Positions 240-15,663 of a DNA stretch of 64,000 nt are shown one piece after another (within the stretch, counting starts at the first letter, position 1; each line of letters starts with the position of its first letter). A program made the translations under genes and the position numbers. Source of the DNA: Clostridia bacterium (GTDB lineage Bacteria; Bacillota; Clostridia; Lachnospirales; JAOARL01); NCBI GenBank assembly GCA_025210555.1, contig JAOARL010000008.1, positions 45,024 through 109,023 on the forward strand. Reading direction: 5' to 3'. The notes below the pieces were generated by a model. That model made no database searches, was not told the DNA's origin, and was given only the letters and a program-made list of their open reading frames with translations.

Positions 240-1790
240 TTAATATTTCTTTAAAACTGTTCCAGTATAATAATGAGTTAATATCTCATCATATGTATAT
301 CCATTTTTGGCATATGCATTAGCTCCCATTTGACTCATACCAACACCATGCCCAAATCCATTACCTTCAATAACAATTTTATTCTTATCTTTATTATATA
401 CCTCTTGTTTTCTGCTTCCATCTTTTGATAATACGTATACTTCATCTTTTTTTACTTTTCCGCTTCCATTAGCTGAAAGTACAGTTATCTCTCCTATTTT
501 ATCAGCGCCAAATTTATTATCTGCTTGCATATAAAATGAATAATCTCCATTTTGAAGTTTTACATAAAATCTAGTACTTTTACATCTTCTTTTTCCTCTA
601 TCTGTATAATATACTGGAAAGAAACTTCTTATCCTATCTTTTGATACAGTCAGACTACCCTTACTACCATTTATATTTAAAGATGTTATTCTTCCATATC
701 TAGTATATGAAACCGGCTCTAAATTTTTGAAACTTCCTATATTCTTATCATACTTAGAGTCTGCCCTTGATGCTAATTGACTAGATGTGTATTCTCTTGT
801 CCAAACATCATCTTCTTCATATTCATCAACAACTCCAACTAAGTAAGGCTTTACACTCCCCCATACATTAGTTATATCTTCAGTATAACCACCACTGCTA
901 GCTGAATAATATGTTCTTATTACACTGTCTCCATATAATAAAAATTCATCTTCTGTTTCCTTAACTGCCCTATTACCTTTTTCAGTTTCATTAGTATATC
1001 CTTTATACGCTTGACAATGCTCTGAATCACATATGTGATATCCAGCTGATGCATGTTTACTATTTTGCACATTAAGTGCTGCATAATTTCTCGCTGCTAC
1101 TGCTTGCGCTTTAAGAGCCTCTATCTCATAATGACTCTCCATTTCTGAAGAAACTACTCCTTTTAAATACTCATCTAGATCAATATAGTTAATAGGAATT
1201 AATCCTGCACCATTGTATCTTTTAAGTATTAACTTACCTCTGTATGAATTCTTATCTAAATTTATTCTGTCTTCTGTTTCAAAAAAGACATCTTCAGTAG
1301 TATCAATCATAAGCTTAGTTTTTCCACTTACATAACAAGCAACTCTAACTGTATTAGGATTAATAACTTTATGAGAAGCGCTTTTATCTCTACTTCCTGC
1401 TAATTCTAATAAACTGTTAGCCTTGTCTTTAGTATCATATCCACCTACATAAACTTTCCATTTACCATTACCAACATAAGCTGGAATTCCAGTATTGTAT
1501 AATTCAACTTTTTTCATTACATCTTTAAATGAACTAAATGTATCATTTGTTCCTATGTAATAAAGTTTGCTTGGTACAAACTTAAAGTTTGAACTTGAAT
1601 CAAAATCCGCTATTTCTTTTTCATTCTTATCAAACATAACTAAATCATTATTTTTAACAACAATTTCATTTGTATCTGGATATTGACTTGTAAGTCCTAC
1701 CTTAATCTTATTTGGAGCATTAAATGCACTTACAGTTATTGCTGTAAAAATAATTAATGCCGATGTAACTATAAATACTTTATTATTCAT
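240..1790 (-). CDS. SpoIID/LytB-domain protein with N-terminal signal/anchor and SPOR-like segment
   Basis: 516-aa ORF with hydrophobic N-terminus. Motifs [34 protein letters not shown] and [18 protein letters not shown]. Start overlaps the stop of the upstream paralog. Confidence 0.8.
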
Positions 1791-3228
1791 CTATAGCCTC
1801 CCCTTTAACTATTGATCCTGTATAATAATGACTCAATATTTGTTTGTATGTATAATTTCTTTTTGCATATTCGTTGGCTCCCATTTGACTCATACCAACT
1901 CCATGACCATATCCTATACCTTCAATTATTAACCCATCTGTTCCACTTTCATAATCTATTTCTTTTATATTTTCATCTACTCCTAATATATAAACTTTTT
2001 TAAGCTTTTTATCATTTGAAAAAATATTAATATCTTCATATGGCCTATTGTTATTACTCATCCCTAATATATTGGCATATACCTTACCTTCAAATGATTT
2101 AATTCTATATTTATTACTTCTTAGTCCAAGAAAGTATCTACCATTAGCTTTTTTATACTCTTTTTTATTTATATATATACTAGCAACACTTCCACTATTA
2201 TAATAATCTTTTATTTCAATGCTTGATATTTCTTTGTCTGGATTTATGAGCCAAATCTCATCTTGCTCAAATTCATCTTCCACACTTCTTAGATAATCGA
2301 CCTCTTTACTCCATACATTTTCTGAGTCTTCTGTTGCCCCACCACTTCTTGCAAAGAAGTAAGTTTCAACTAAGTTATCACCATAATAAAGTAAGTCCCC
2401 TTCTGTTTCCATAACAGCTTCTGATGAATTTTTATGTTCTGTCATTACACCTTTATATACCTGACAGTGAACAGTGTCACAAAGATTATATCCTTCTTCT
2501 ATATGCTTACTCATATTTAAATATGTATAATTTCTAGCTGCCACAGCTTGAGCTTTTAGCGCTTCTTTTTCCCATAAAGCTGGCATTTCTGATGGCACAA
2601 CTGATTTTAAATAATTATTTATATCTATTCTATTTATTAAAATTAAATCATTATCATTTTTTCTAACAAAACCAAATTTGCCTCTATATTTATCTTCTAG
2701 AAATTCAAACTTGTAGTTTGAATCAAAGAAGAGATTGTCATCTCTACTGTCTATTATAAATTCTTCTCCATCACCAGACATTATACTTATTCTTCTATAA
2801 TTATTTCTTAAAACTTCATGATCCATATCTGGATTAATTTCATAAACTAAATCAAAATCTTCTCTTGCTTCTTTGTCACTACTATATTCTCCTATATATA
2901 CTTTCCATTCTTCATTACCAATATATACTGGCTTTGCATTCTTATAAAGATCCACCACTTCTTTAGCATCTTCATATGAATCAAATACTTTACTCACCAT
3001 TAGATAATATTTATTTGATACAACTGCATATATATCGCCTTCTACTTTGAAAACTCTTTCTCCACTCTCATATTCGACCTTAAACTCTTTTCCACTAATC
3101 TCAATAAAACCTTCATTTGAAAGTTTTGATTCAAGTCCAATGTTTAAATTTGTAAGATTTTCAGCACTAACAAAAAGCGATGTAAAAACACTTAATGATA
3201 ATACTAAAAAAAGAGTTCTAATACGCAT
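1783..3228 (-). CDS. SpoIID/LytB-domain protein, tandem paralog of 240..1790
   Basis: Motifs [34 protein letters not shown] and RSGGATED. I place the start at ATG 3228 (MRIRTLFLVLSL signal-like N-terminus, AGAGGTG RBS) rather than the track start 3246. Confidence 0.8.
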   Translation of the reverse strand: MRIRTLFLVLSLSVFTSLFVSAENLTNLNIGLESKLSNEGFIEISGKEFKVEYESGERVFKVEGDIYAVVSNKYYLMVSKVFDSYEDAKEVVDLYKNAKPVYIGNEEWKVYIGEYSSDKEAREDFDLVYEINPDMDHEVLRNNYRRISIMSGDGEEFIIDSRDDNLFFDSNYKFEFLEDKYRGKFGFVRKNDNDLILINRIDINNYLKSVVPSEMPALWEKEALKAQAVAARNYTYLNMSKHIEEGYNLCDTVHCQVYKGVMTEHKNSSEAVMETEGDLLYYGDNLVETYFFARSGGATEDSENVWSKEVDYLRSVEDEFEQDEIWLINPDKEISSIEIKDYYNSGSVASIYINKKEYKKANGRYFLGLRSNKYRIKSFEGKVYANILGMSNNNRPYEDINIFSNDKKLKKVYILGVDENIKEIDYESGTDGLIIEGIGYGHGVGMSQMGANEYAKRNYTYKQILSHYYTGSIVKGEAIDE

Positions 3229-3294
3229 AATATCACCTCTTAACATTATACATTAAAACTCCTTTATTTTCTATTACAAAAAGTTTAAAAAAAC

Positions 3295-4638
3295 TTATTT
3301 TGAATCTTTAATTTTCCAGTATCCTGTCTTATCCGAACCTTCTCTTTCGATAATATTATCTTCTTTCAACTTAGCTATATATCTTTTAGTTGTAGAAAGG
3401 CTATACCCTGTTTGCTCTGAAATTTCATTTGCAGTAATATTAGGGTTCTTTTTTAATTTATCTAATATATCTTCTTTCTTGTTTACAGTGTCATTTACAG
3501 TGTCATTTACAGTGTCATTTACAGTGTCATTTCTAACTCCTCTATTTATAGCTTCTTCGGAAAATTTAAAAACTACTCTTATAAAGTTCTCTGATATTTT
3601 ATATATAGATTTATCATATTCTTTAAGTATCCTTCCAATACCAGATCCTAAGTGTTCTACATATTCTAAATCTTTAAACACTCTCATAAGTTCTTTATTC
3701 CTTGGAGCAGATACACCCTCAAACATATCATTTTCAGACATCCCTGGAACTAACCCTCCTGCTGAAGTAATTTCAATTCTATCCGAAAAAATTTCAAATT
3801 TAGGTGGTATTTCATTAGTCCAATCATTGTGTATGATTGCGTTAATAACAGCTTCTCTAAGAGCCGTTTCTTCTACTAATTTTTTCTCAAATCTTCTTGC
3901 AGCACCTGTTACTTTCGCCATAGTTTTATTTTCAATATCTAATTTATCTAACACTTTCTCTGTGGCCTTTAACAAACAACAATACCCGTACTCATAATTT
4001 TCTATAAGATCAACTCTATCTTCTCCGCTATATTTAGCAACTTTTATAGATGCACCATTTTCATCAGCTAACAAATATGCAGAATAATTATATTTACCTT
4101 CTTCTGTCTTAAGTGCAAGACTATCTAAAAACCTATCATTAACATCATATCCTGCACTATCATAATATATTCTTAATTGCCTAAAAGTCAGGTCTTGCTT
4201 ATTAGATTCTATTTTTCTTAGTGAATTTCTAACTCTTTTTGAATATAAACGATCTATTTCATTAACAGTTAATGGTTCTGTTGCACTTCCTACTCTTAAA
4301 TAACAACCTTTAGGAGTCATCCCAACTTTTTTTATATAATAAGGCTTGTCTGGACCACTAGCAATTATTACCTTAATAATCTGCTTCCCATCTATGTTTT
4401 CAAGCTCTATATCAAACAAGCCCAAAGTTGCTGGTAGTATATTATTTTTAATTCTTTCAGATATTTTAAGCTGAAGTTTATCAGCATCTTCTACACCTGT
4501 TATTATACCAGCATCTTCTACTCCGATATATATCTTTCCACCTTCTTTATAATTAAAAAAACCTACTACTTCCTTTTCAAATTTATCATTAAGTTCCCTC
4601 TTATATTCAACTCTATTACTCTCTGGTTCTAAACTCAT
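3295..4638 (-). CDS. AlbA_2/Schlafen-like putative DNA-binding domain + ATPase-like domain + C-terminal winged-helix protein
   Basis: N-terminus ESNRVEYKRELNDKFEKEVVGFFNYKEGGKIYIGVED is typical of the AlbA_2 domain. C-terminal wHTH-like ITANEISEQTGYSLSTTKRYIAKLKEDNII. Paralog of 39795..41132. Confidence 0.7.
   Translation of the reverse strand: MSLEPESNRVEYKRELNDKFEKEVVGFFNYKEGGKIYIGVEDAGIITGVEDADKLQLKISERIKNNILPATLGLFDIELENIDGKQIIKVIIASGPDKPYYIKKVGMTPKGCYLRVGSATEPLTVNEIDRLYSKRVRNSLRKIESNKQDLTFRQLRIYYDSAGYDVNDRFLDSLALKTEEGKYNYSAYLLADENGASIKVAKYSGEDRVDLIENYEYGYCCLLKATEKVLDKLDIENKTMAKVTGAARRFEKKLVEETALREAVINAIIHNDWTNEIPPKFEIFSDRIEITSAGGLVPGMSENDMFEGVSAPRNKELMRVFKDLEYVEHLGSGIGRILKEYDKSIYKISENFIRVVFKFSEEAINRGVRNDTVNDTVNDTVNDTVNKKEDILDKLKKNPNITANEISEQTGYSLSTTKRYIAKLKEDNIIEREGSDKTGYWKIKDSK
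3482..3529 (-). repeat. Perfect 12-bp tandem repeat x4 inside the CDS, encoding (VNDT)4
   Basis: tttacagtgtca repeated four times head-to-tail. In frame, in the linker before the wHTH. Confidence 0.95.
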
Positions 4639-4687
4639 AATCTCACCACCTTATTACTATTAATTATAACACTATTTTATTTAGTAA

Positions 4688-5584
4688 TCACAACTCTTTA
4701 GACGAAAGAAACTCTTTCCCATCTATATAGTCAAACATAGTATCTTTTGTATTAAACATCAGCCTATATGCATGAAGAATTTGACCCTTCTTAACTTTAA
4801 CTTTACTTCCATATTTAGCATCCCCTAATATCGGATGTCCTATCGATGAAAGATGAACTCTTATTTGATGACTTCTACCTGTTATTAAGTTTATCTCAAG
4901 CATAGTATTTCCATTTTTTACACTTAAAGGTTTTACAATGGTTTTTATATATTTACCTTCATCTGATATTTTAGAAGTATTACTTTTCTCATCTTTCTCA
5001 ATACTACCTTCTAACGTTAATTCTTTTTCAATAACACCTTCAACTACAGTCTTATAATACTTTTCAATTTTCTTTTCTTTAATTAATTCATTTAACACAC
5101 TTAATGATTTTAAATTCTTACCTACTATAACCAAACCTGATGTGTTTCTATCCAGTCTATTAGCAGTAGCTGGCTTAAACATATCATCCGCTTTAACCCC
5201 TAAGTAAGTATATATACTATCTATTAATGTACCATCTACATTATCAATATCAGGATGCATAAGTACTCCTGCTGGCTTATCAACTATTAAAATATTTTCA
5301 TCTTCATATACTACTTCAAATAGCATTTCAGTTTCTTTTATTTCTTCTTTAACACCTCTAAATTTATTATAGGTTTCATCTGAAAAGTAAAAAGTTATCT
5401 CATCTCCTGAAACTAACGTTTCCTTACCTTCTATTCTTCCACCATTTAGTTTTATTCTTTTTTTACGAATCATTTTATATAAAAAAGTTCTACCTGCTTC
5501 AGGTAGTATTTTAAATAAAAACTTTTCTATTTTTTGTCCTTCACTATTTTTATCTATTGTTATTTTAATCATATATTCCTCCAT
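4688..5584 (-). CDS. RluA-family 23S rRNA/tRNA pseudouridine synthase with N-terminal S4-like domain
   Basis: 298 aa. Motifs NRLDRNTSGLVIVGKN and GRSHQIRVHLSSIGHPILGD. Confidence 0.85.
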   Translation of the reverse strand: MEEYMIKITIDKNSEGQKIEKFLFKILPEAGRTFLYKMIRKKRIKLNGGRIEGKETLVSGDEITFYFSDETYNKFRGVKEEIKETEMLFEVVYEDENILIVDKPAGVLMHPDIDNVDGTLIDSIYTYLGVKADDMFKPATANRLDRNTSGLVIVGKNLKSLSVLNELIKEKKIEKYYKTVVEGVIEKELTLEGSIEKDEKSNTSKISDEGKYIKTIVKPLSVKNGNTMLEINLITGRSHQIRVHLSSIGHPILGDAKYGSKVKVKKGQILHAYRLMFNTKDTMFDYIDGKEFLSSKEL

Positions 5585-5585
5585 T

Positions 5586-5620
5586 TAAAAACTCTTACAT
5601 GCATTTTAACATGTAAGAGC
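5586..5620 (-). terminator. Rho-independent terminator after the Tmk-like gene
   Basis: 10-bp stem ctcttacatg/catgtaagag with an 8-nt loop, followed by TTTTT on the minus strand. Confidence 0.7.
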
Positions 5621-5673
5621 TTTTATAACAATTCATTTTATTTTTAAAGTTTAGACTTGTAACACTCAAAGCA

Positions 5674-6828
5674 CTATCTATTAACCCTAGCTTTTTCTTT
5701 ATAAACCTCATTTGTATATTCTTTTAAAAGTTCTTCAAAACTCTTGTCAGTTTCTGCACTTTCTAGGAACATATCTTCAAAAGTTGGTGATTTTTCACCT
5801 CTTCTAAACATCTTACTATCTGTTTTTATATAGCCATTTTCATCTTTACTAAATGCTATGCATTCTATATTTTCAAGATTAACAAACTGATACACTTCAC
5901 CACTTGAATTTTCAATCATATAATCACACATGTCTTCATGACAATCAAATATATCAACTGTGAAATCATATTTTCCTTCAGCTTTAATCACTTCAACTTT
6001 TATAACTTTATTTTTTTCTTCAAGTATGTTTATAATTTCATAGTTTCCATCTTTATTTTTGATTATTATATTCTTGTTCTTATCAATTCGTGTATGCTTC
6101 TTTTTACTGTATGTAACCATCTCATACATATTCTTTGAGTTCTTACTTTCATCAATACACTCATCTACTATATCTTTAATTTCTTCTCCTATGCTCTCAA
6201 TAGTTCTTAATCTAAATTTATTATCACATTTAATTATGTTCCAATCATATTTGTCTGCTACAAAGTAGGCATTATCAAAAGCTCTTTCTAAATGCTCTAT
6301 ACTTCTTTCATGTATATCTTTACGTCTACTTCCTGTGAATTCATTTCTTCTTTCTTTCATAAGAATTTTTGTTGTTTCTGGTTTTACAGACAAGAATATA
6401 ACCTTATCCGGTCTTGGAAGTCCTAAAAAATCATATTCAAAGTGTGCTATCCAATCAATCATCTCGTTTTTGTTAGCTACTCCATTTATCTTTGAAACTT
6501 GATGGACCATATTTGCAGTTGTGTACCTATCAAGAATTATAATGGCATCACCTGCTTTATATAAATTCTCAATATGCTTCTTATAACTTCTGTATCTATC
6601 AATACCATAAAAAACAGAAACATTTTTCCCATCAATATCATTAGCTTTTTTACCAAATACTCCTTCTAAATATAATTTAGTAAGAAAACTAGATTCACTT
6701 GTGTATTCTGGATAACTAAGAAGTAAGGCTCTTTTACCTTCTTTTTCAAACTTCATCTTTAGTAATTTAGATTGAGTTGCCTTACCGCTTCCATCAGTTC
6801 CTTCTATAACCACTACAATAGATTTCAT
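5674..6828 (-). CDS. Thymidylate-kinase-like domain (about aa 1-215) fused to an uncharacterised ~170-aa C-terminal domain
   Basis: P-loop IEGTDGSGKATQ and the DRY motif (ILDRYTTAN). The C-terminal half has no motif I recognise. Confidence 0.7.
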   Translation of the reverse strand: MKSIVVVIEGTDGSGKATQSKLLKMKFEKEGKRALLLSYPEYTSESSFLTKLYLEGVFGKKANDIDGKNVSVFYGIDRYRSYKKHIENLYKAGDAIIILDRYTTANMVHQVSKINGVANKNEMIDWIAHFEYDFLGLPRPDKVIFLSVKPETTKILMKERRNEFTGSRRKDIHERSIEHLERAFDNAYFVADKYDWNIIKCDNKFRLRTIESIGEEIKDIVDECIDESKNSKNMYEMVTYSKKKHTRIDKNKNIIIKNKDGNYEIINILEEKNKVIKVEVIKAEGKYDFTVDIFDCHEDMCDYMIENSSGEVYQFVNLENIECIAFSKDENGYIKTDSKMFRRGEKSPTFEDMFLESAETDKSFEELLKEYTNEVYKEKARVNR

Positions 6829-6923: not shown

Positions 6924-7496
6924 TTAAATATAGTCAAGAATGTCATCTTCAAATTCTATACTAGTTAAATTCCCACCCTCATCTTTACTTGCTATAAATC
7001 TTTCATTATCACTATTTTTTTCACCACTATTTATGATACTACCTTCAAGGTTCCCATTTTTATCACAGGAAACTACTTGAGCTATACCATCAAATGATAC
7101 AGGATTCAATAATGTAAATCCACCTGTTGGATTAAGTTCTTTTGCACTTAACATCTCTCTTACTAACAACTGTTTAAACACTATATTTTTAGATGCCGCT
7201 TCATCAAATTCCCTTTCATATTTTTCAATTTCATCCTTTGTTTCTTCAACACTATATAATAATGCAAATGAAATACCACTTGTAGCTATAGCTACAGACG
7301 AAAGAGTTATATTTCCAGTAGCTGCACCTGCTATTGCTCCACAAAAGCATCCAATGCTTAGTCCTCTGCTAGTATTTATATTCTTTTTCTTTTTAACTTC
7401 AGCAACATTCCTAGAGTTATTAATATTATTAAGCTTTTCTATATTATTGGCTAACTTTTCACCAATTCTATTTATTCTATTCCAAGTTTTTTTCAC
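6924..7496 (-). CDS. Glycine-zipper membrane protein, paralog family member G3
   Basis: GTG start with AAGGATGG RBS. Coiled-coil N-terminus, Gly/Ala-rich hydrophobic hairpin GLSIGCFCGAIAGAATGNITLSSVAIATSGISFALL, then NPTGGFTLLNPVSFD. Confidence 0.6.
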   Translation of the reverse strand: MKKTWNRINRIGEKLANNIEKLNNINNSRNVAEVKKKKNINTSRGLSIGCFCGAIAGAATGNITLSSVAIATSGISFALLYSVEETKDEIEKYEREFDEAASKNIVFKQLLVREMLSAKELNPTGGFTLLNPVSFDGIAQVVSCDKNGNLEGSIINSGEKNSDNERFIASKDEGGNLTSIEFEDDILDYI

Positions 7497-7570
7497 AAAA
7501 CACCATCCTTACAATTTATAACTATATTATCATAACCAACTTATATTATTAAGTATTATTATTTATTATA

Positions 7571-8110
7571 TTAAGGCAATTCTTCTTCAAAGGTAAAATC
7601 ATTTTCTTCATATTTAAATGCAATACCTGAATCTGTTATACCTTTCATATATGCTGCTTTTCCTTCTTCATCATTTTCAACATAGTATATGCTACCCAAC
7701 TCTTCAAACTTTAAAAAATCATATAGCGTAGCTGGACCTGTTGGAAGCTCTTCTTCCTTTTCAATGCTTGCTTTTATATAATCTGCTTCAAAATTTTTCA
7801 ACATCTCTCCTGATTCTTCTGCTTTTGTTCTCAGTGTGGGCCTTCCGTTTTCACTTACAAGCTTACCTACATAAGCTCCAAGTCCATTTAATGTTAATAT
7901 TGTTGAAATTCCACATATAAGAGTTGATCCAAAAAAAGTCCCTGCACCAAAAGAAACTATACCAGCTTTAAGGAAATTCATAGCAATTTTATCAAATAGT
8001 TCAATTCCTTCATCCCTCTTATTAAGTGCTTCTTTATCTCTATTATTTATATTCTTTGCTGCTCTATATTTATTTTTTGAAACTCTGTACTCACTCTTCT
8101 CAACTAGCAT
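7571..8110 (-). CDS. Glycine-zipper membrane protein, paralog family member G2
   Basis: Same architecture (GIVSFGAGTFFGSTLICGISTILTLNGLGAYVG, then LPTGPATLYDFLKFE). Its ATG overlaps the TAG of the upstream gene (ACATGCTAG). Confidence 0.6.
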   Translation of the reverse strand: MLVEKSEYRVSKNKYRAAKNINNRDKEALNKRDEGIELFDKIAMNFLKAGIVSFGAGTFFGSTLICGISTILTLNGLGAYVGKLVSENGRPTLRTKAEESGEMLKNFEADYIKASIEKEEELPTGPATLYDFLKFEELGSIYYVENDEEGKAAYMKGITDSGIAFKYEENDFTFEEELP

Positions 8111-8778
8111 GTTAATTCATTCGCTTCATCTACTAACTCAAATCCATTTTTTGCAAAACCAAGATCATATAATCGCCCTTTATCTTCACCTTCTGAAGAT
8201 TTTACTGCTTCAAATCCAGGTTCATAGTAGCCATCATACCACACCAATCCTTCTATTGAGTTTTCTCCATCTTTTTCCCTCACATCATGTATCACTCCAA
8301 CTTTGTCAAACGTAATTGGATTTAAAAGAGTCATCCCACCAGTTGGACTAAACTCTGGATTTTTGAGTGCAGAACGCATTAAACTCTGTAAACTTAATGC
8401 ATGGTTAGCAGTTTCTTTGTTAAGCAAGTCAATCTCTTGATCATGTTCTTTTTCTAATTTGCTTTTCGCTAAATTTGTCTTAATTGTCTTAGCACCATTC
8501 ACTGCTGCTAAACCTAATACACCTATTGACGCTAATGACAATCCTAATCCTCCTGTTAGTAGACCTGCTCCCGCAGCTAAGCCACCAACTAAAGCAGTTC
8601 CCACTGTAGATCTTGTAAGCTTTCTACCTTTTTCTTTTAATTTCTCTATATTTTCACTTAATTTTTTTGCATTGTTAAGATTTTTTTCCATATTTTCTTT
8701 ATGCATACCCATTTTAGTTGCAAATATTATATTTTCTTCATACACACCCATTTTAGTTGAAGTTCTTGTATTTTCCAT
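8104..8778 (-). CDS. Glycine-zipper membrane protein, paralog family member G1
   Basis: Start moved to ATG 8778 (GGGAGG RBS 7 nt upstream). Hydrophobic segment VGTALVGGLAAGAGLLTGGLGLSLASIGVLGLAAVNGA, then SPTGGMTLLNPITFD. Confidence 0.65.
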   Translation of the reverse strand: MENTRTSTKMGVYEENIIFATKMGMHKENMEKNLNNAKKLSENIEKLKEKGRKLTRSTVGTALVGGLAAGAGLLTGGLGLSLASIGVLGLAAVNGAKTIKTNLAKSKLEKEHDQEIDLLNKETANHALSLQSLMRSALKNPEFSPTGGMTLLNPITFDKVGVIHDVREKDGENSIEGLVWYDGYYEPGFEAVKSSEGEDKGRLYDLGFAKNGFELVDEANELTC

Positions 8779-8814
8779 ATTATCGCCTCCCACTTTTTTC
8801 AAAACACTAATAAC

Positions 8815-8854
8815 ATTGTACCAATCTCAATTGCAATTGTCAAGAATTTTCAGA
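8815..8854 (-). promoter_or_regulatory. Sigma-A-type promoter TTGACA-17-TACAAT with upstream TCTGAAAATT element
   Basis: -10 at 8815-8820 and -35 at 8838-8843. TCTGAAAATT at 8845-8854, one nt upstream of the -35. AAAAAGCCAA at 8866-8875. Confidence 0.6.
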
Positions 8855-8884
8855 CAATTTGCTTTTTGGCTTTTTCTCATAAAA

Positions 8885-8908
8885 ATAGCGGATATTTTAT
8901 ATCCGCTA
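8885..8908 (-). terminator. Rho-independent terminator after the acidic-protein gene
   Basis: tagcggata/tatccgcta stem followed by TTTTTAT on the minus strand. Confidence 0.7.
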
Positions 8909-8914
8909 CTTTCT

Positions 8915-10420
8915 TTATTCTTCATCTTCTTCCAAATCATCATCATCTATTGTAATCATTCTAGTTTCATCATCCCAACCAACTTTTGCATCTAGATTTT
9001 CAGATATAAATCTTAACGGTACAAAAGTTCTAGACTTTTCAATAGCTGCTGCTACTTCCGTTTCTTTCTCTTCTCCGTTAACTCTGATTTTTCTCTTATT
9101 TATAGGCAATACAATTTCTTTCTCACCTTTTTTTATTATTACACTTTCAGTCTCTGCATCCCATTTAACTTCTGCATCAAGCATTTCTGAAATCGCTCTT
9201 ACAGGTACTAAAGTTCTTCCCTCTTTAACAATTGGATCTGCATCAAATGATGGTCTTCTATTCTTTACAAATATTTTAAGCTTATCTTTTTCAGTTTTAT
9301 TAAGTGCCAGACCAATTTTCTTATAAGCTTCTTTTTTATCTGATGCTTTATCTATTAATTCTTCATATAATTCTTCTCTTTCTTCATCTTCTATCTCAGA
9401 TAACCTTTCAAGTCTCTCTTCCAAAGCTTCAACTCTATCTTCAAAAAACTCTTTTTTTATCTCCATTATTTTTTCTCTTACTTCTCTATCTTTTTCCATT
9501 AACTCTTCAAAAGATTCTTTTAGGTCTTCTGTCATATTCTTACGTGCAGCATTTCTAATTCTTTTCATTGTAGATATTGATCTTGCATGTACTTTTCTAT
9601 AAGCTTTTTCTACATTTAAAAACTCTTCTTTATTTTCAAAGTCTTCATCTAACATTTCTAATATTCTTTCTCTTGCTTCTTTTTGTTCTTCTAGATACAT
9701 CATAGCTTTTTCTTCAAAATTATCAGCTTTTAACACATCAATCTCTTTTATTTTTCTATTTTTATCAATGTTCTGTCTATAATTTCTTATATTAACATCT
9801 TCCATTAGTTCCTTTATTTCCTCTTTAACTTCCAATAATTCTTCTAATATTTCTTCTCTTTCTTCGCCTTTAGCAGTCTTTAAAGTTTTAGATAGTTCTG
9901 CCTGCTTAACTCTTAATTCTTTTAGTTCTTCTAAATCTTCTTTGTTTTCTTCTTCTTTTTCCTCTTTATCTTCTCTCATATCTTTCATTAATTCTTTTAT
10001 TTCTTTATTAACTTCTAATAGTTCTTTCATTATTTCTTTTCTGTCTTCACCTTTAGAACTTCTTAATTTCTTAATTAATTCCATTTGCATAGCTTTAAGT
10101 TCTTCAAGCTCTTCCCTATCATCATTATCTGAATCCATATCATCGTCATCTAAATCCATGTCATCATCATCTTCTTCCTCGTCTTCATCATCTGAGTCCA
10201 TGTCATCATCATCTTCTTCCTCGTCTTCATCATCTGAGTCCATGTCATCATCATCTTCTTCCGATTCCATCTCCTCTTTTTCTTCTGTCTCTTCATCTTC
10301 TTTGTCATCATCTACTGTCTCTTCTATTTTAGTATCAGTATCCTCTTCCGCTAAAGACTTAAGTGGAACATTTGTAAACATTAGCATAATTGCTAAAAAT
10401 ACAATCAATAAATTCTTCAT
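8915..10420 (-). CDS. Secreted hyper-acidic coiled-coil protein with two C-terminal copper-amine-oxidase-N-terminal-like (stalk) repeats
   Basis: Signal-like MKNLLIVFLAIMLMFTNVPLKSLA. D/E tracts. C-terminal RTLVPVRAISEMLDAEVKWD and RTFVPLRFISENLDAKVGWD repeats. Confidence 0.7.
   Translation of the reverse strand: MKNLLIVFLAIMLMFTNVPLKSLAEEDTDTKIEETVDDDKEDEETEEKEEMESEEDDDDMDSDDEDEEEDDDDMDSDDEDEEEDDDDMDLDDDDMDSDNDDREELEELKAMQMELIKKLRSSKGEDRKEIMKELLEVNKEIKELMKDMREDKEEKEEENKEDLEELKELRVKQAELSKTLKTAKGEEREEILEELLEVKEEIKELMEDVNIRNYRQNIDKNRKIKEIDVLKADNFEEKAMMYLEEQKEARERILEMLDEDFENKEEFLNVEKAYRKVHARSISTMKRIRNAARKNMTEDLKESFEELMEKDREVREKIMEIKKEFFEDRVEALEERLERLSEIEDEEREELYEELIDKASDKKEAYKKIGLALNKTEKDKLKIFVKNRRPSFDADPIVKEGRTLVPVRAISEMLDAEVKWDAETESVIIKKGEKEIVLPINKRKIRVNGEEKETEVAAAIEKSRTFVPLRFISENLDAKVGWDDETRMITIDDDDLEEDEE
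10156..10265 (-). repeat. 42-bp tandem repeat (about 2.6 copies) encoding MDSDDEDEEEDDDD units
   Basis: ccatgtcatcatcatcttcttcctcgtcttcatcatctgagt recurs with starts at 10156, 10198 and 10240. Confidence 0.9.
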
Positions 10421-10530
10421 ATAAACACCCCTTGTTTTTTATATTTTTGAACTTCGTTCACTTTAAGTTTAACATAATCTATGATTATGGTCTACTTCAT
10501 CCAAATAAAAAAAGAGCTTTTTTATAGCCC

Positions 10531-11103
10531 TTAGTTAATTATTTCTAAAGAAGTAAATGCATATCCTTTATTTTCTATAACTCTCATTTTTGTTTTTAGA
10601 GTTTCATCTATTGTTTCAACTTTTCCACTCATAACAGTTTCACCCTTATTAAGTTCTTCAAAGCAATCTATTGTTGCTATATTGCTTCCATCGTATGAAT
10701 TAAAAATAGTACTTGGATGCTCTGGAAATCTATAACTCTGAATAACTTCACCTAAATATTCTTCTTTTAATTTCACTTGTTTTTTTAATGTATCTTCAAA
10801 GTCATCTTCAAACATCTTTTTAATATTTTTTAATTTTTCCTTTGTTTCTTTATCTTTAATATCAGAATATACAGCTCCAACTATGCACCCCTCAAGAGCA
10901 GCAACTATAATCTGAGGTTTTATAATCGGAATATATAATTTATTAATAACTGCTAGTATTCCAGATCCAATAACTCCTAATGAAAATATTTTCTTATTTC
11001 TATTATATTTTTTGTTATTATATTCCAACTGACCAATTAATTCTTTCTTTTGATTATATTCATTTTCTAATGATGATATTTTCATTCCTAAGTTGTCTAC
11101 CAT
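10531..11103 (-). CDS. Glycine-zipper-type membrane protein, distant family member G4
   Basis: Start moved to ATG 11103 (AAGGAG RBS). Coiled-coil N-terminus, hydrophobic FSLGVIGSGILAVINKLYIPIIKPQIIVAALEGCIVGAV, then FPEHPSTIFNSYDG. Confidence 0.5.
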   Translation of the reverse strand: MVDNLGMKISSLENEYNQKKELIGQLEYNNKKYNRNKKIFSLGVIGSGILAVINKLYIPIIKPQIIVAALEGCIVGAVYSDIKDKETKEKLKNIKKMFEDDFEDTLKKQVKLKEEYLGEVIQSYRFPEHPSTIFNSYDGSNIATIDCFEELNKGETVMSGKVETIDETLKTKMRVIENKGYAFTSLEIIN

Positions 11104-11132: not shown

Positions 11133-11160
11133 AAAAAAAGAACTAGCAACTAACTAGTTC
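11133..11160 (-). terminator. Rho-independent terminator overlapping the trmL stop codon
   Basis: gaactag/ctagttc stem followed by a T7 run on the minus strand. Confidence 0.7.
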
Positions 11161-11645
11161 CATTCATATTTAGTTAAATGTCCTTCTGTTTGAAAACCCT
11201 TAAAATCTTGTTGTCTTAAGGCTTCATAAAGAATTATATTAACAGAATTTGATAAATTCAATGATCTAATATCATTAAGCATAGGTATTCTAATACTTTC
11301 ATTTTTATGTGTTTTAAGTATTTCCTCTGGAATACCTCCACTTTCTTTTCCAAACATTATATATGAATCATCATCATATGTAACATCTGTATATTTATTT
11401 AAAGCTTTTGTTGTTGCCATAAATATTTTCACATCTTTATTTTTCTCCACAAACTCTTCAAAATTTTCATATACATGAAGATCAAGTTTGTCCCAGTAAT
11501 CAAGTCCAGCTCTTTTAAGGTACTTATCTTCAATAGAAAATCCTAACGGTTTAATTAAATGTAAAGAAGAACCTGTTGCTGCACAAGTTCTTGCTATATT
11601 TCCTGTATTTTGTGGTATTTCTGGTTCATGTAATATTATATGCAT
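11154..11645 (-). CDS. trmL: tRNA (cytidine/uridine-34 2'-O)-methyltransferase, SpoU/TrmL family
   Basis: MHIILHEPEIPQNTGNIARTCAATGSSLHLIKPLGFSIEDKYLKRAGLDYW is near-canonical TrmL. Confidence 0.85.
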   Translation of the reverse strand: MHIILHEPEIPQNTGNIARTCAATGSSLHLIKPLGFSIEDKYLKRAGLDYWDKLDLHVYENFEEFVEKNKDVKIFMATTKALNKYTDVTYDDDSYIMFGKESGGIPEEILKTHKNESIRIPMLNDIRSLNLSNSVNIILYEALRQQDFKGFQTEGHLTKYEWN

Positions 11646-11658
11646 ATAATAACCTCTT

Positions 11659-12141
11659 TTACTCTACATTCTCCGCAAGAGCCATATCTATTTCAAATTT
11701 AGCTCCTATCTCTGTAATTTCTAATGGAATAGAAACATTTTCTATTTTATTAGTAGTAATTTGCATACTCTCACCTAATAATAATGAAGGTGGTGTTATA
11801 TCAATTTTTATACCTTTGTTATAGAAAATTGTTGCTGTTGTTCCAAGTATCATATTTGTAAGCTCTGAAATAGCTGACTTTGACATCTCATCTAATTCAG
11901 TAACTGGCATTCCCATCATCATCTTTGATGCTATTGCTTTTGCTGATTCAATTGGCATATTAAAGATAACTTGTCCTTTAATATCTCCTGTAACTCCTAA
12001 AATAATAGCTACCGTATTACTAGCAAACGGTGATGCTTTTAAATATGGCTTGCCCAGTGCCACATCTACATTACAAGTATTTTTTATTATGTTAGTTGCC
12101 CCTTCAACAAAAGGATTAATGTATTCAACGTTTATGCTCAT
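11659..12141 (-). CDS. cheX: CheX-type chemotaxis phosphatase
   Basis: Start at ATG 12141 (AAAGGAG RBS). MSINVEYINPFVEGATNIIKNT...VTGDIKGQVIFNM...SAISELTNMILG...DITPPS matches the CheX pattern. Confidence 0.8.
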   Translation of the reverse strand: MSINVEYINPFVEGATNIIKNTCNVDVALGKPYLKASPFASNTVAIILGVTGDIKGQVIFNMPIESAKAIASKMMMGMPVTELDEMSKSAISELTNMILGTTATIFYNKGIKIDITPPSLLLGESMQITTNKIENVSIPLEITEIGAKFEIDMALAENVE

Positions 12142-12209
12142 CTTATTCTCCTTTTTCATTCCTTTGGTTTTTGAATTCATGTTCACAATATACGATAACA
12201 TATCTTACT

Positions 12210-12752
12210 TTAAAGTTCAATCTTAATTGTATTCCAAATAAGCTTAAAAACTTCCCCTCTTGTTATGTTATCATTCATATTCTTAATTAGTTCCTCGTTT
12301 ATTATACCTATTTCTAAAGATTTGTCAAAGTAATTATATGGCCAAGTTTCTTCAGACAAATTATTGTCTTTTCCTACTAATCTAACTAAGATAGTTAAAA
12401 CTTCTCCATATGTAATATTTTTTCCAGGTTTAAATGTGTTATCTGGAAAACCTGTCATTATATGACTATTATTTACTATGTATATATATTTATTTCCCCA
12501 AAACTCCGGTTTTAAATCATCAAACTTAAGTTCACTAGCGCTTTCATTAATACCTTTGCTTTCCATTATCCTAACAACAATGGCAGCAATCTCTGCTCTT
12601 GTTATATAGTTATTAAACCTTAAATCTCCATCTTCATAACCATTAACAATCTCAAGTTTCTTAAGGTTCTCTCCTATTTCATCTATTGTTAAAGCATTTA
12701 CGCTTATAAATAACATTACAAAGGATATAACACTAATTAATATCTTTTTCAT
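12210..12752 (-). CDS. Secreted protein with two S-layer-homology (SLH) domains
   Basis: Signal peptide. VNGYEDGDLRFNNYITRAEIAAIVVRI and MTGFPDNTFKPGKNITYGEVLTILVRL. Confidence 0.7.
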   Translation of the reverse strand: MKKILISVISFVMLFISVNALTIDEIGENLKKLEIVNGYEDGDLRFNNYITRAEIAAIVVRIMESKGINESASELKFDDLKPEFWGNKYIYIVNNSHIMTGFPDNTFKPGKNITYGEVLTILVRLVGKDNNLSEETWPYNYFDKSLEIGIINEELIKNMNDNITRGEVFKLIWNTIKIEL

Positions 12753-14707
12753 TCACTACCTACTTTCTGTATTAAATCATTCTCAACACAATAATCTATA
12801 TTTAAAGGTCTTTTAAGAAATAATCTATCAAATACTACATAAACTGTTTCACCATCAACTTCTTTTACAGTACCTTCTCCAAACTTTTTATGCTTTATTT
12901 TTTCATTAATACTAAACTTTGGTTTTAATTTAAGTTCAAGTATGAATCTACTTTTCTTCATTTTTTTATCAAATTTTTCATTTAAATATGATATATGTAA
13001 ATTTCTTTTAGCTCTAGTTATACTTACATAGAAAAGCCTTCTTTCTTCCTCTATATCATCATATGACTTTTCATGTGGCACTATGTCTTCATTTGTACTA
13101 ATAACAAATACATGTTCAAATTCCAATCCTTTAGCGCTATGCATAGTTGTTAGAGTAACTCCTTGTTTATCTTTTGAACTTTCTTTTATTTGTTTTTCAT
13201 ATTTAATAATATAATCCTCTATCTCTGCTATAGTTTCAAATGACTTAACAAGTTCTGTTAACTCGTCTAATATATTTATTAAAGGATCACTATTAATACT
13301 TTTTTCTAAGCAATAAGTCTTAATGTGATTATCATATCCTATATCTTTCCTTATATACTTAAAGGCATCATACATATTCATTTTTTTTAGTTTATTTAAG
13401 TTATATGTAAGTTCATCTATTCTATCTAGTTGCCATGTCTTAAGTCCTTGCACTTCATATATTCTTTTCAAGTTATAATCAGCCTTCATAATAACTGATT
13501 TACTCATATATCTATTTGGCTTGTTTATTATCCTTTTAAAGCTTTCTACATCGTCTTTGTCATTAGCAAGCTTAACATAACTTATAATATCTTTAAAAAC
13601 CCAATGATTAAATATATTAGCTATATCATCCCTAGTATTAAACCTTATATTATGATCTAGTAAATGTTCTATTAAAACATTTGCTTGAACATTGTTTCTA
13701 TATATAACTGCAACATCTGATAAACTTTTAATTTTTTTAATCTTGCTAACTATGCTTTCAGCTTCCTCATTTGCATCAGAATATTTTTTGAGATTTATTT
13801 CTGTATCTGATTCAAAATTTGCATTTAACTCTTTTTCATATCTGAGCTCATTATTTAATATTAAATTATTAGCTGCTTCGATTATTTTATCACTTGATCT
13901 ATAGTTATTTATAAGATTAACCTTTTTTATATTTTCATATATTTTAGGTAATCTTAAAAATATTTCCGGTCTTGCTCCTCTGAATGCATATATGCTTTGG
14001 TCATCATCTCCAACAACAAATAAATTTTTATATTTACCTGCCATCATCTTTATAATTTCAAACTGTACTATATTTATATCTTGAAACTCATCTATAATAA
14101 TGTATTTGTATTTTTCTCTATACTTTTCAAGTATATATTCATTTCCCTTAAACATTTCATAACACATCACTAATATGTCATCAAAGTCAATTTTCCGTAT
14201 TTCTTCCTTAACACCTTCATAGGCATTATATATAGTTTCAAAATCTGATTTCGAAAAATTTATAGAATTAAAGTTTTCTACAGCTATTAAAGAATTCTTT
14301 AACAATCCTAAATCTTTCAAAAATAAATTTGTTATTTCATCTATATCTTCGTATTCTAATCCATTTTTGTTAATAATCTGCTTAACTATTTCATATTTCT
14401 CATATTCAAGTAAAATATTATAACCTATAAGCTTTCTTTCCCATTTAAGCATCCTATAAAATATTGAATGAAATGTAGCAAACTCTATTTTTTCATCTGA
14501 TATTTTACTAAATCTCTCTTTCATTTCAGTAGCTGATGCTTTTGAGAAAGTTATTCCTAATATTTCACTACTATCTATATTATTTAATATTAGCCATTTA
14601 ATTCTTTCTAGTATAAGAGTAGTCTTACCAGTTCCAGGTCCTGCTAAAACCATCATAGGTCCTGAAATATGTTTAACTGCTAATTCTTGTTCTTTATTTA
14701 AATTCAT
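12749..14707 (-). CDS. UvrD/PcrA-family ATP-dependent DNA helicase
   Basis: Walker A AGPGTGKTT, IIIDEFQDIN, VGDDDQSIYAFRGA and TMHSAKGLEF. Stop overlaps the downstream SLH gene start. Confidence 0.85.
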   Translation of the reverse strand: MNLNKEQELAVKHISGPMMVLAGPGTGKTTLILERIKWLILNNIDSSEILGITFSKASATEMKERFSKISDEKIEFATFHSIFYRMLKWERKLIGYNILLEYEKYEIVKQIINKNGLEYEDIDEITNLFLKDLGLLKNSLIAVENFNSINFSKSDFETIYNAYEGVKEEIRKIDFDDILVMCYEMFKGNEYILEKYREKYKYIIIDEFQDINIVQFEIIKMMAGKYKNLFVVGDDDQSIYAFRGARPEIFLRLPKIYENIKKVNLINNYRSSDKIIEAANNLILNNELRYEKELNANFESDTEINLKKYSDANEEAESIVSKIKKIKSLSDVAVIYRNNVQANVLIEHLLDHNIRFNTRDDIANIFNHWVFKDIISYVKLANDKDDVESFKRIINKPNRYMSKSVIMKADYNLKRIYEVQGLKTWQLDRIDELTYNLNKLKKMNMYDAFKYIRKDIGYDNHIKTYCLEKSINSDPLINILDELTELVKSFETIAEIEDYIIKYEKQIKESSKDKQGVTLTTMHSAKGLEFEHVFVISTNEDIVPHEKSYDDIEEERRLFYVSITRAKRNLHISYLNEKFDKKMKKSRFILELKLKPKFSINEKIKHKKFGEGTVKEVDGETVYVVFDRLFLKRPLNIDYCVENDLIQKVGSE

Positions 14708-14718
14708 CTTGCCTCCTG

Positions 14719-15663
14719 CTATAACGTAAGTTCTCTTATGTTTTTTATTAAATCTTTCATACTCTTATATTCTTCAATCCCTTTTTCATATTGATTTCTT
14801 CTAACCCTTTTTGCGAAAGAATTGAAGAAACAAAGTAAAACTGTAAATCTAAACATCTCATTAAAACCTTCAGGTCTACTAAAGTTATATAAACCGTCAA
14901 AATAACCTCTAACAAAGGCTTTTTCTTTCTCTCTTAATATTCCCCATATTATCTGATACCTAAAATTCAGCACATCATAATCAAGTCCTATTGATTCACA
15001 ATCTACAGTGTATATATTATCTTCATTGTCTTTCATGAAATTTGATCTTTTTATGTCACCATGAATAAGACACTTTACAGAGTTTTTAAAAGCTTTGCCA
15101 TATTCATCTGCTAGTGACCTTATATTTTCTATTTCATCTACCGAGAAATCTTTCTTAAAGAGATTACCCAGCTTATTATCCTTAGTTAATACATCAATTG
15201 AATCATTTATTAATTCTATATGATCCATTATTGTTTCTCTTCTACATATACTCTCATTATATCCTTTAAACTCTTTAAGTTTTGCGTATGCCTCACCAAT
15301 ATTTACACCTAGTTCATAGTTATCCTTAAGAGAATACTCATCTTTGTTATATTCATCTTTTAAATTAACACCATCTACATACTCATATGCTATATAGTGC
15401 ATTTCCTCATCTTTTACTAATCCTATGTCTATAAGTTCTATAGCCTTAAGTGGCATCTCTTTATAATACATAAGTCTATCTTTTAATTCCATTACTTTCT
15501 TTTGACTAAAACCTTTACTTGCAACCTTTAAAAAGAATGTATCATCATCTCTTACTACTTTATATGTATGAGCTCCTGAATGGCCTCCAGTTACTTCAAT
15601 TAATTCATCAGTTTCTATTAAAAAATCTATATTTTTATTACTATACATTTTTACCTCCAACAT
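14719..15663 (-). CDS. APH/choline-kinase-like phosphotransferase family protein
   Basis: Catalytic loop LIHGDIKRSNFM and a downstream DCES Mg-binding-like motif. Confidence 0.65.
   Translation of the reverse strand: MLEVKMYSNKNIDFLIETDELIEVTGGHSGAHTYKVVRDDDTFFLKVASKGFSQKKVMELKDRLMYYKEMPLKAIELIDIGLVKDEEMHYIAYEYVDGVNLKDEYNKDEYSLKDNYELGVNIGEAYAKLKEFKGYNESICRRETIMDHIELINDSIDVLTKDNKLGNLFKKDFSVDEIENIRSLADEYGKAFKNSVKCLIHGDIKRSNFMKDNEDNIYTVDCESIGLDYDVLNFRYQIIWGILREKEKAFVRGYFDGLYNFSRPEGFNEMFRFTVLLCFFNSFAKRVRRNQYEKGIEEYKSMKDLIKNIRELTL

Follow-up and report, generated by a model that had tools for sequence, protein, structure and literature searches.

We analysed a 64-kb window of DNA (contig JAOARL010000008.1 of an uncultured Clostridia bacterium; all positions below count from the first letter of the whole stretch), and we describe here a group of three genes, G1, G2 and G3, which encode a family of candidate membrane proteins found so far only in this lineage. 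Two further genes lie beside them, namely G4 and a gene for an acidic protein with a stalk domain. The gene set thus comprises the following five open reading frames (ORFs), all on the minus strand within positions 6924-11103.

8104-8778, minus strand: G1, 224 amino acids (aa), MCT4612049.1; first gene of the operon, present in the ORF list and as an NCBI call; predicted layout of a helical N-terminus, a Gly/Ala-rich hairpin, a helix, the box PTGGMTLLNP and an acidic beta-rich C-terminus
7571-8110, minus strand: G2, 179 aa, MCT4612048.1; its ATG overlaps the G1 stop codon (ATGCTAG); box PTGPATLYD
6924-7496, minus strand: G3, 190 aa, MCT4612047.1; GTG start after AAGGATGGTG; box PTGGFTLLNP
8915-10420, minus strand: acidic stalk protein (predicted as secreted and coiled-coil), 501 aa, MCT4612050.1; a neighbour outside the G operon
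10531-11103, minus strand: G4, 190 aa, MCT4612051.1; a stand-alone gene

At a base composition of about 29% guanine plus cytosine (GC), roughly one codon in ten should be a stop, and an open frame of at least 180 codons has a chance probability of about 7e-9. When codon usage was compared with 19 other window genes, the frames of the five ORFs gave correlations of r = 0.81-0.93, and shifted frames reached only 0.29-0.55. Since such long frames are improbable by chance and the in-frame codon usage is host-like, all five ORFs are genuine coding sequences, just where an earlier sequence-only reading of this DNA had placed them. The starts are preceded by ribosome-binding sites: G1 begins with the ATG at 8778, 8 bases after GGGAGG and identical to the NCBI call MCT4612049.1, and G4 begins with the ATG at 11103, preceded by AAAGGAG.

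The sequence-only reading had described G1 to G4 as four paralogs sharing one conserved box, a description that holds for the first three genes only. In BLASTP comparisons G1 matched G3 with E = 7e-13 (31% identity across 138 residues) and G2 with E = 4e-5, and the comparison of G2 with G3 alone was not significant. Because only the two comparisons that involve G1 are significant, G1 bridges the family, and the alignments identify G1, G2 and G3 as true paralogs. The copies have diverged to 25-31% identity, yet all of them keep the same layout. This includes the box that follows the helical linker.

8318-8346, minus strand: box PTGGMTLLNP of G1
7102-7130, minus strand: box PTGGFTLLNP of G3
7718-7744, minus strand: degenerate box PTGPATLYD of G2, at the same place

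The box is identical at 8/10 positions between copies, and the back-translated pattern PTGG(F/M)TLLNP has exactly 2 matches in the window, one in G1 and one in G3, where 0 are expected by chance. The shared box is therefore well founded for G1 and G3, and the version in G2 is degenerate. As a separate observation on G1, its N-terminal coding part contains a 39-nucleotide (nt) tandem duplication (window 8690-8767, 82% identical), which gives a repeated 13-aa unit (TKMGVYEENIIFA / TKMGMHKENMEKN) not present in G2 or G3.

The membership of G4, on the other hand, did not stand. BLASTP of G4 against G1, G2 and G3 gave non-significant values of E = 0.07-0.7, and hhalign against the G1-G3 profile gave a probability of 0.3%. 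In an unfiltered hidden Markov model (HMM) alignment G4 was colinear with the profile over nearly the entire protein, with a score of 6.8 bits. This score was better than those of 2000/2000 full shuffles of G4, but among composition-preserving shuffles it was reached by 50/2000 when blocks of 15 residues were used and by 239/2000 with blocks of 8 residues; the block-shuffle test is a weak one, as the known paralog G2 passes it no better than G4. Since BLASTP, hhalign and the block shuffles give no homology, the likeness of G4 is best described as one of layout: it appears to share the order of compositional segments with G1-G3, and residue-level homology is not demonstrable. A very distant relationship to G1-G3 is possible, and G4 may be a fourth copy that has diverged extremely, or else a small protein that arose by convergence.

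The arrangement of transcription signals separates the five genes further.

8815-8843, minus strand: sigma-70-like promoter TTGACA-17-TACAAT with a TG extension, 11/12 matches, upstream of G1
8786-8791, minus strand: ribosome-binding site GGGAGG of G1
8886-8908, minus strand: terminator hairpin and T-run (TTTTTAT) of the stalk gene, separating this gene from the G1 promoter
10512-10532, minus strand: terminator directly after G4
11139-11161, minus strand: terminator after trmL, upstream of G4

The overlap of the G1 stop with the G2 start suggests translational coupling of the two genes, and the gap of 74 nt between G2 and G3 contains a ribosome-binding site and no terminator. From the G1 promoter, the ribosome-binding sites, the ATGCTAG overlap and the lack of an internal terminator, G1-G2-G3 can be recognised as one operon under a vegetative-type promoter. 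G4 is bracketed by the trmL terminator and its own terminator. The genes had been taken for a single cluster; the pattern of promoters and terminators instead divides the region into three transcription units: the G1-G2-G3 operon and, each on its own, the acidic gene and G4.

Searched by word index against 5.8 billion clusters, G1 and G4 yielded no protein other than themselves, and an exhaustive hmmsearch of 1.84 billion representative proteins, which covered the G1-G3 profile, gave exactly three matches: G1, G2 and G3. Nothing was found when viral and JGI metagenome contigs were scanned with the G1-G3 alignment or viral contigs with G4, tblastn of G1 against phage and plasmid records gave no match, and a scan of the metagenome collection with the back-translated motif DNA gave zero matches. 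The motif pattern of the window itself has zero matches in the genome and metagenome contig collections, hence these negatives concern other organisms. TrmL, encoded next to G4, has its best relatives (at most 72% identity) in Lachnospirales-type Clostridia, and neither HMM nor phmmer nor an architecture filter detected a G-like ORF in any of 80 TrmL-anchored loci with 10-kb flanks.

All public copies of the genes trace back to one NCBI metagenome-assembled genome (MAG; 'Clostridia bacterium', locus tags N4A47_016xx), to a single IMG metagenome and to a few runs (SRR214186xx). Their DNA is 100% identical with one exception, a 1-nt deletion in a T-run of a single short contig (L091, SRR21418665_69400; about position 1793, window about 8390), which splits G1 into ORFs of 132 aa and 91 aa; the remainder of this 3.7-kb contig is identical to the window. 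As the change concerns one nucleotide of a T-run in a single short contig, it is probably an assembly error, though a rare variant with a frameshift is possible. The collections searched thus gave no sign of the cluster beyond this strain, and the genes do not represent a conserved system. On the evidence of these searches G1-G3 are an orphan family restricted to a single uncultured lineage of Clostridia. Orphan families of this kind occur frequently among Clostridia that have been sampled sparsely.

We then compared the proteins with family and structure libraries. No match near any threshold was obtained for G1-G4 in Pfam, NCBIfam, PHROGs or PADLOC, and a Pfam scan of the C-terminal domains alone was also without match. 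In PDB, profile searches stayed at the level of noise (E of at least 0.17), whether the query was a full-length protein or the C-terminal domain, and no PDB entry matched the low-confidence G1 model at E <= 1e-3 in Foldseek; the head of the Foldseek list is made up of long helical hairpins of a generic kind (chemoreceptors, ESCRT-III/Vipp1, SmhB/AhlB pores, colicin stalks) and is not interpreted here. The glycine-zipper family Gly-zipper_Omp (PF13488) reached 10.3 bits with G3, against a gathering cut-off of 25, and had no match in G1, G2 and G4. Neither LXG nor WXG100 families matched G1-G4 at E <= 1 in Pfam or NCBIfam, PspM scored 12.1 bits versus 80, the PHROG holin match (E = 0.15) was below significance, and no secretion signal was present in G1-G4. 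Thus the family, which had not been recognised from the letters alone, also went unrecognised in Pfam, NCBIfam, PHROGs, PADLOC and PDB and has no homolog in the 1.84 billion representatives. Judged by its sequences, it is a new family, real and lineage-specific, that fits none of the known ones.

Several candidate identities were rejected. Assignment of G1 to SBP56 was discarded, because PF05694 scores 10.5 bits versus a gathering threshold of 34 (E = 0.26) and aligns to 78 residues of a 453-position model. The NCBI name of G1 (MCT4612049.1), 'selenium-binding family protein', is unsupported and should be disregarded. The (L/N/S)PTG(G/P) box cannot be read as a sortase signal, since it is without LPxTG spacing and no C-terminal transmembrane (TM) segment with a basic tail is present. 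A chemoreceptor reading, suggested by the top Foldseek matches and the nearby cheX, was dismissed on account of the hydrophobic hairpin tip and of the lack of a profile match to the signalling domain of methyl-accepting chemotaxis proteins.

The most characteristic part of the three paralogs is their central segment.

8488-8610, minus strand: Gly/Ala-rich segment of G1, residues 57-97, 41 residues with 11 Gly and 8 Ala
7865-7987, minus strand: Gly-rich hydrophobic segment of G2, residues 42-82
7251-7364, minus strand: Gly/Ala/Ser-rich segment of G3, residues 45-82, with GxxxGxxxGxxxG

In G1-G3 this segment consists of about 38-42 uncharged residues and is rich in Gly, Ala, Ser and Thr. With (G/A/S)xxxGxxxG or GxxxGxxx(G/S/T) as the zipper pattern, we found 2 motifs inside the hydrophobic segment of G1 (both (G/A/S)xxxGxxxG, with a predicted hairpin turn at TGG 75-77), 1+1 in G2 and 3 consecutive ones in G3. 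G4 also has 1+1 motifs (AALEGCIVG, GCIVGAVYS), but in a far less Gly-rich segment, which is Ile/Val-rich, contains 5 Gly only and is broken by K, P, Q and E. After the segment of G1-G3 come a charged helical linker, the PTGG box and an acidic C-terminal part. The net charge is +3 to +9 in the N-terminal parts of G1-G3 and -10 to -13 in their C-terminal parts; for all four proteins the ranges are +2 to +9 and -5 to -13, respectively.

The AlphaFold2 (AF2) model of G1, built from the three-sequence alignment, is of low confidence (predicted local distance difference test, pLDDT, 47.5). It places helices 27-75 and 78-139 in one long helical hairpin with a Gly-rich tip and the turn at T-G-G 75-77, followed by four beta strands, and the model of G4 alone (pLDDT 39.4) has the same order of elements; neither model is good enough to assign a fold. 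The coiled-coil N-termini ascribed to all four proteins proved weaker than claimed, as only two regions had a heptad periodicity above that of shuffles, the N-terminus of G1 (6/500) and the linker of G3 (15/500).

The acidic protein has a different character. Asp and Glu make up 34.7% of its residues, and it consists, in order, of a leader, acidic repeats, a K/E-rich helical region and the stalk domain.

8948-9268, minus strand: Cu_amine_oxidN1 (stalk) domain, residues 385-491, internally duplicated
10119-10262, minus strand: 21/42-nt tandem repeats encoding DDDDMDSDDEDEEE acidic repeats

Residues 1-25 are hydrophobic (MKNLLIVFLAIMLMFTNVPLKSLA; Kyte-Doolittle 1.95, 17-residue Hessa sum -0.5), and by this heuristic an N-terminal export signal is present. 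The domain matches PF07833 with E = 1.5e-35 and 121.8 bits versus 24.2, over model positions 2-108/108. The D/E content, the leader and this match bear out the earlier picture of a D/E-rich signal-peptide protein with a duplicated copper-amine-oxidase-N-like end. Three relatives have the same layout (P0006, P0007 and P0009, the last two from Thermosediminibacterales MAGs), and with P0006 the identity is 57% across the last 155 residues. With these exported stalk-domain proteins of Clostridia and Bacilli it shares a signal peptide, an acidic stretch, a coiled coil, the stalk domain and an acidic tail, whereas it is longer and its N-terminal region is exceptionally acidic and tandemly repeated. 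In stalk proteins at three loci from other Clostridia (L084 10001-11308, L086 1333-2463 and L087 8001-9230), which have this layout too, we noticed the motif (A/D)YKxxGKxxxKxxxxxLK(I/V)FVN directly before Cu_amine_oxidN1, which suggests that the proteins sharing it may be an undescribed subfamily of envelope proteins.

The earlier reading had also considered a functional link between the G genes and the acidic protein, and this was not borne out. The stalk gene has its own terminator, and no G-like gene was found in the loci of stalk-protein relatives examined. In the closest relative, L084 (27% GC), the gene order is dnaE-pfk-pyk-stalk-spoIID-queA-hprK-murB-whiA, and in this genome it is trmL-G4-stalk-[G1-G2-G3-tmk fusion-rluA-AlbA_2 regulator-spoIID(487)]-spoIID(516)-queA-hprK-murB-whiA, the 516-aa SpoIID being 43% identical to the SpoIID of L084. 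Compared with L084, G1-G3 and four further genes form a lineage-specific block between the stalk gene and the spoIID backbone; no flanking repeats that would mark a mobile element were found around it, and its GC content is unremarkable. Because the stalk gene of L084 adjoins spoIID directly, where here G1-G3 and the four genes are located, the juxtaposition of the stalk gene and the G genes is best read, from this one informative relative, as a local accident. The stalk protein would accordingly be an independent exported envelope protein, with spoIID and not the G genes as its conserved neighbour.

Neighbouring genes were annotated by Pfam at 240-6828, 11154-12752 and 14719-15663, and the helicase at 12749-14707 by precomputed Pfam and PADLOC results. 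Besides the stalk protein, the annotated neighbours are two SpoIID proteins, the AlbA_2 regulator, RluA, the Tmk fusion, TrmL, CheX, an SLH protein, UvrD and APH. Among the neighbours annotated at 240-6828 and 11154-15663 no genes for type VII (T7SS) or other secretion systems, an immunity candidate, an endolysin, a phage, PspA or LiaH were seen. The toxin/immunity, holin-like and envelope-stress functions put forward in the earlier reading are conceivable and no more. Some of the neighbours deserve a remark of their own. The two SpoIID-domain genes (240-1790 and 1783-3246, minus strand) are arranged in tandem, overlap and are 36% identical, where L084 has one copy. At 5674-6828 (minus strand) a thymidylate-kinase domain (residues 8-191) is fused to about 190 residues without family match, and a pattern scan of GTDB species representatives gave no relative of this fusion. 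The gene at 3295-4638 (minus strand) encodes a protein with SLFN/AlbA_2, HATPase_c_4 and winged helix-turn-helix (HTH) parts, in which a perfect 12-nt repeat present four times (3482-3529) encodes an (NDTV)4 stretch that separates the HTH from the ATPase-like part. The gene of the UvrD/PcrA-type helicase (12749-14707, minus strand) shares 4 nt with the start of a small gene for a signal-peptide SLH-domain protein (12210-12752, minus strand), an odd coupling. The helicase matches PADLOC GajB models (2e-89), as any UvrD-type protein would, and no adjacent GajA-like partner was seen.

Taken together, the features of G1, G2 and G3 lead us to favour, tentatively and with rather less than even confidence, the view that they are co-expressed membrane proteins anchored by zipper-packed hairpins, with both termini in the cytoplasm and with the box and C-terminal domain as an interaction surface. 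A lineage-restricted operon of three fast-diverged paralogs, of which G1 and G2 are apparently translationally coupled, would yield proteins of a common build: a basic helical N-terminus, a Gly/Ala/Ser-rich hairpin of about 40 residues, a helical linker, a P-T-G-G-x-T-L-L-N-P box and an acidic beta-rich domain. The hairpin would dip into the cytoplasmic membrane and leave both ends of the protein in the cytoplasm. The three paralogs could then pack through their glycine-zipper faces into a hetero-oligomer, in which weakly hydrophobic helices would be stabilised by mutual packing, and the C-terminal box and domain may offer a surface in the cytoplasm for docking or oligomerisation. The membrane would be perturbed or organised by this assembly, which may act like a pore or like a scaffold. 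As to topology, the flanks of the G1 segment are basic on both sides (6 K/R versus 3 D/E in the N-flank, 4 versus 2 in the C-flank), and basic residues flank the C-side of the G2 segment. The flanking charges thus favour an N-in/C-in orientation for G1; G3, with its acidic C-flank, is ambiguous.

A number of observations weigh against this view. The best 19-residue windows on the Hessa scale are +1.4 (G1), +1.9 (G2), +2.1 (G3) and +4.5 kcal/mol (G4), and the first hairpin halves score +3.7 to +4.4, whereas bona fide TM helices of other proteins of the window range from -0.4 to -3.7. Since these scores lie well above those of real TM helices from the same window, the segments of G1-G4 appear only marginally hydrophobic, and their insertion into the membrane is something that we infer. 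Of the glycine-zipper membrane hairpins proposed originally, the formal zipper motifs are there in G1-G3, but the membrane character is weaker than claimed (Hessa +1.4 to +4.5). Marginal hydrophobicity of this kind fits oligomer-dependent hairpins, post-translational insertion or the buried core of a soluble bundle. The hairpin itself is only suggestive in structure models with pLDDT values of 47 and 39, and the acidic C-flank of G3, together with positive N-terminal and negative C-terminal parts, would also fit a single span oriented N-in/C-out. Moreover, all metagenome copies are identical and give no signal of selection, and as there are no orthologs, conservation, co-variation and co-occurrence are unusable as evidence.

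A low hydrophobicity is also found in segments that insert post-translationally, and G1-G3 could be soluble helical proteins that act as conditional pore-formers: the zipper hairpin would insert after a trigger or after hetero-oligomerisation and would depolarise either the membrane of the cell itself (an abortive or lysis function) or a target membrane. Three paralogs within one operon and the hydrophobic hairpin at the tip of the long helical hairpin in the G1 AF2 model would suit such a function, and sub-threshold matches of this type recur (XaxA-type toxin NF033928, E = 0.03; PHROG hemolysin, 0.08, and holin, 0.15; Foldseek SmhB/AhlB pores, E = 0.56-1.9). By analogy, the proteins might be likened to miniature tripartite alpha-pore-forming toxins or to the depolarising zipper toxins TelE and EsxX, the toxicity of which needs glycine zippers according to two reports (10.1101/2022.09.07.506920; PMC12744356). 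However, none of the toxin-like matches is significant, all of them can be explained by composition and a generic helical hairpin, and the fold search was based on a low-confidence model. G1-G4 are without signal peptide or LXG/WXG domain, the annotated neighbours include no secretion, immunity, endolysin or phage gene, and G1-G3 are half the size of ClyA-family toxins. In addition, the promoter looks constitutive and vegetative, which one would hardly expect of a toxin left unguarded. We therefore consider conditional pore formation unlikely, and the likening to these toxins equally so.

The charge distribution would also fit another arrangement, in which only the second half of the segment spans the membrane and the acidic domain with the PTGG box lies outside, where contact with the wall or with the acidic stalk protein would be possible. 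In each of the four proteins the N-terminal part has a net positive charge (+2 to +9) and the C-terminal part a net negative one (-5 to -13), the flanks of G3 (5 K/R versus 1 D/E on the N-side, 3 versus 7 on the C-side) follow the same trend, the second half of each segment is clearly more hydrophobic than the first, and envelope proteins destined for export (stalk, SpoIID, SLH) are encoded by neighbouring genes. Yet the hydrophobic stretch is about 40 residues long and has a turn at its centre that is Gly-rich or polar, a net basic C-flank is seen in G1, G2 and G4, and the stalk gene is neither a conserved companion nor part of the same transcription unit, which makes the single span doubtful in our opinion. 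The proteins may also be soluble and cytoplasmic, the Gly/Ala-rich helices forming the tightly packed core of a bundle; this would agree with Hessa sums that are all positive and with the K, P, Q and E in the G4 segment. Such a bundle is quite improbable in view of Kyte-Doolittle 19-residue means of up to 1.5-1.8 over 38-42 uncharged residues in G1-G3 and of a formal glycine-zipper pattern typical of membrane helix packing. Finally, with no homolog among 1.84 billion representatives, a location in a lineage-specific block and a frameshift of G1 in one assembly, one could think of evolutionarily young or decaying orphan genes without selected function. We find this very hard to believe for three copies that at 25-31% identity keep their layout, 8/10 positions of the box and intact frames of 179-224 codons at 29% GC, and that combine a host-like codon usage with good ribosome-binding sites and a promoter close to consensus; the frameshift, a 1-nt change in a T-run of a single short contig, is probably an assembly error. 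Co-expressed, hairpin-anchored proteins with both ends in the cytoplasm thus remain our preferred, if tentative, interpretation of G1-G3.

The present value of the analysis is corrective: the public name of G1 is unsupported, G4 is not to be counted in the family, and the stalk protein groups with spoIID-type envelope genes. In comparison with known systems, G1-G3 resemble class II holins and the anchors LiaI and PspM in their predicted two-helix hairpin with N-in/C-in orientation and charged cytoplasmic tails, but they are larger and have a structured C-terminal domain; no endolysin, phage, PspA or LiaH neighbour was seen, and for a holin context in particular there is no adjacent phage or endolysin gene and no match in phage records. 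With the Pfam glycine-zipper families (PF13488 and relatives) they share (G/A/S)xxxGxxxG in a short hydrophobic hairpin, whereas the members of those families are short lipoprotein or outer-membrane-associated peptides without flanking helices and without a C-terminal domain. The T7SSb toxins TelE of Streptococcus gallolyticus and EsxX of Staphylococcus aureus, as described in the reports on them, likewise come from Firmicutes, are helical in their N-terminal part and contain a Gly-rich, membrane-acting zipper of the GxxxG type. They differ in having an N-terminal LXG domain, a C-terminal zipper, a T7SS with partner genes and dedicated immunity proteins, while in G1-G3, which have no LXG/WXG match, the zipper is central and followed by about 100 residues, and the annotated neighbours include no T7SS or immunity genes.

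The tripartite or binary alpha-pore-forming toxins of the ClyA superfamily (AhlABC, SmhABC, Hbl, Nhe and XaxAB) offer a parallel in organisation, three paralogous genes in one operon, and their long helical hairpin with a hydrophobic tip may have a counterpart in the hairpin predicted, at low confidence, for G1. They are, however, secreted proteins of 330-450 aa with a helical tail bundle, compared with 179-224 aa and a beta-rich acidic C-terminal domain in G1-G3, and the matches themselves are far below threshold (NF033928, 13.6 bits versus 125; best Foldseek SmhB/AhlB, E = 0.56 on the model with pLDDT 47). At its most speculative, and improbably so, the analogy would extend to an undescribed three-component membrane-active complex of one Clostridia lineage, which would form a pore or remodel the membrane through its zippers and use the PTGGxTLLNP domain as a new cytoplasmic module for gating or docking. 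If the proteins do assemble in a membrane-active form, they would represent, on a minimal scale, a glycine-zipper pore or scaffold of several components that evolved independently, and also an orphan family expanded by tandem duplication within a single lineage. Set beside the tripartite alpha-pore-forming toxins, such a complex would be mechanistically analogous but evolutionarily unrelated, and built from proteins of half their size.

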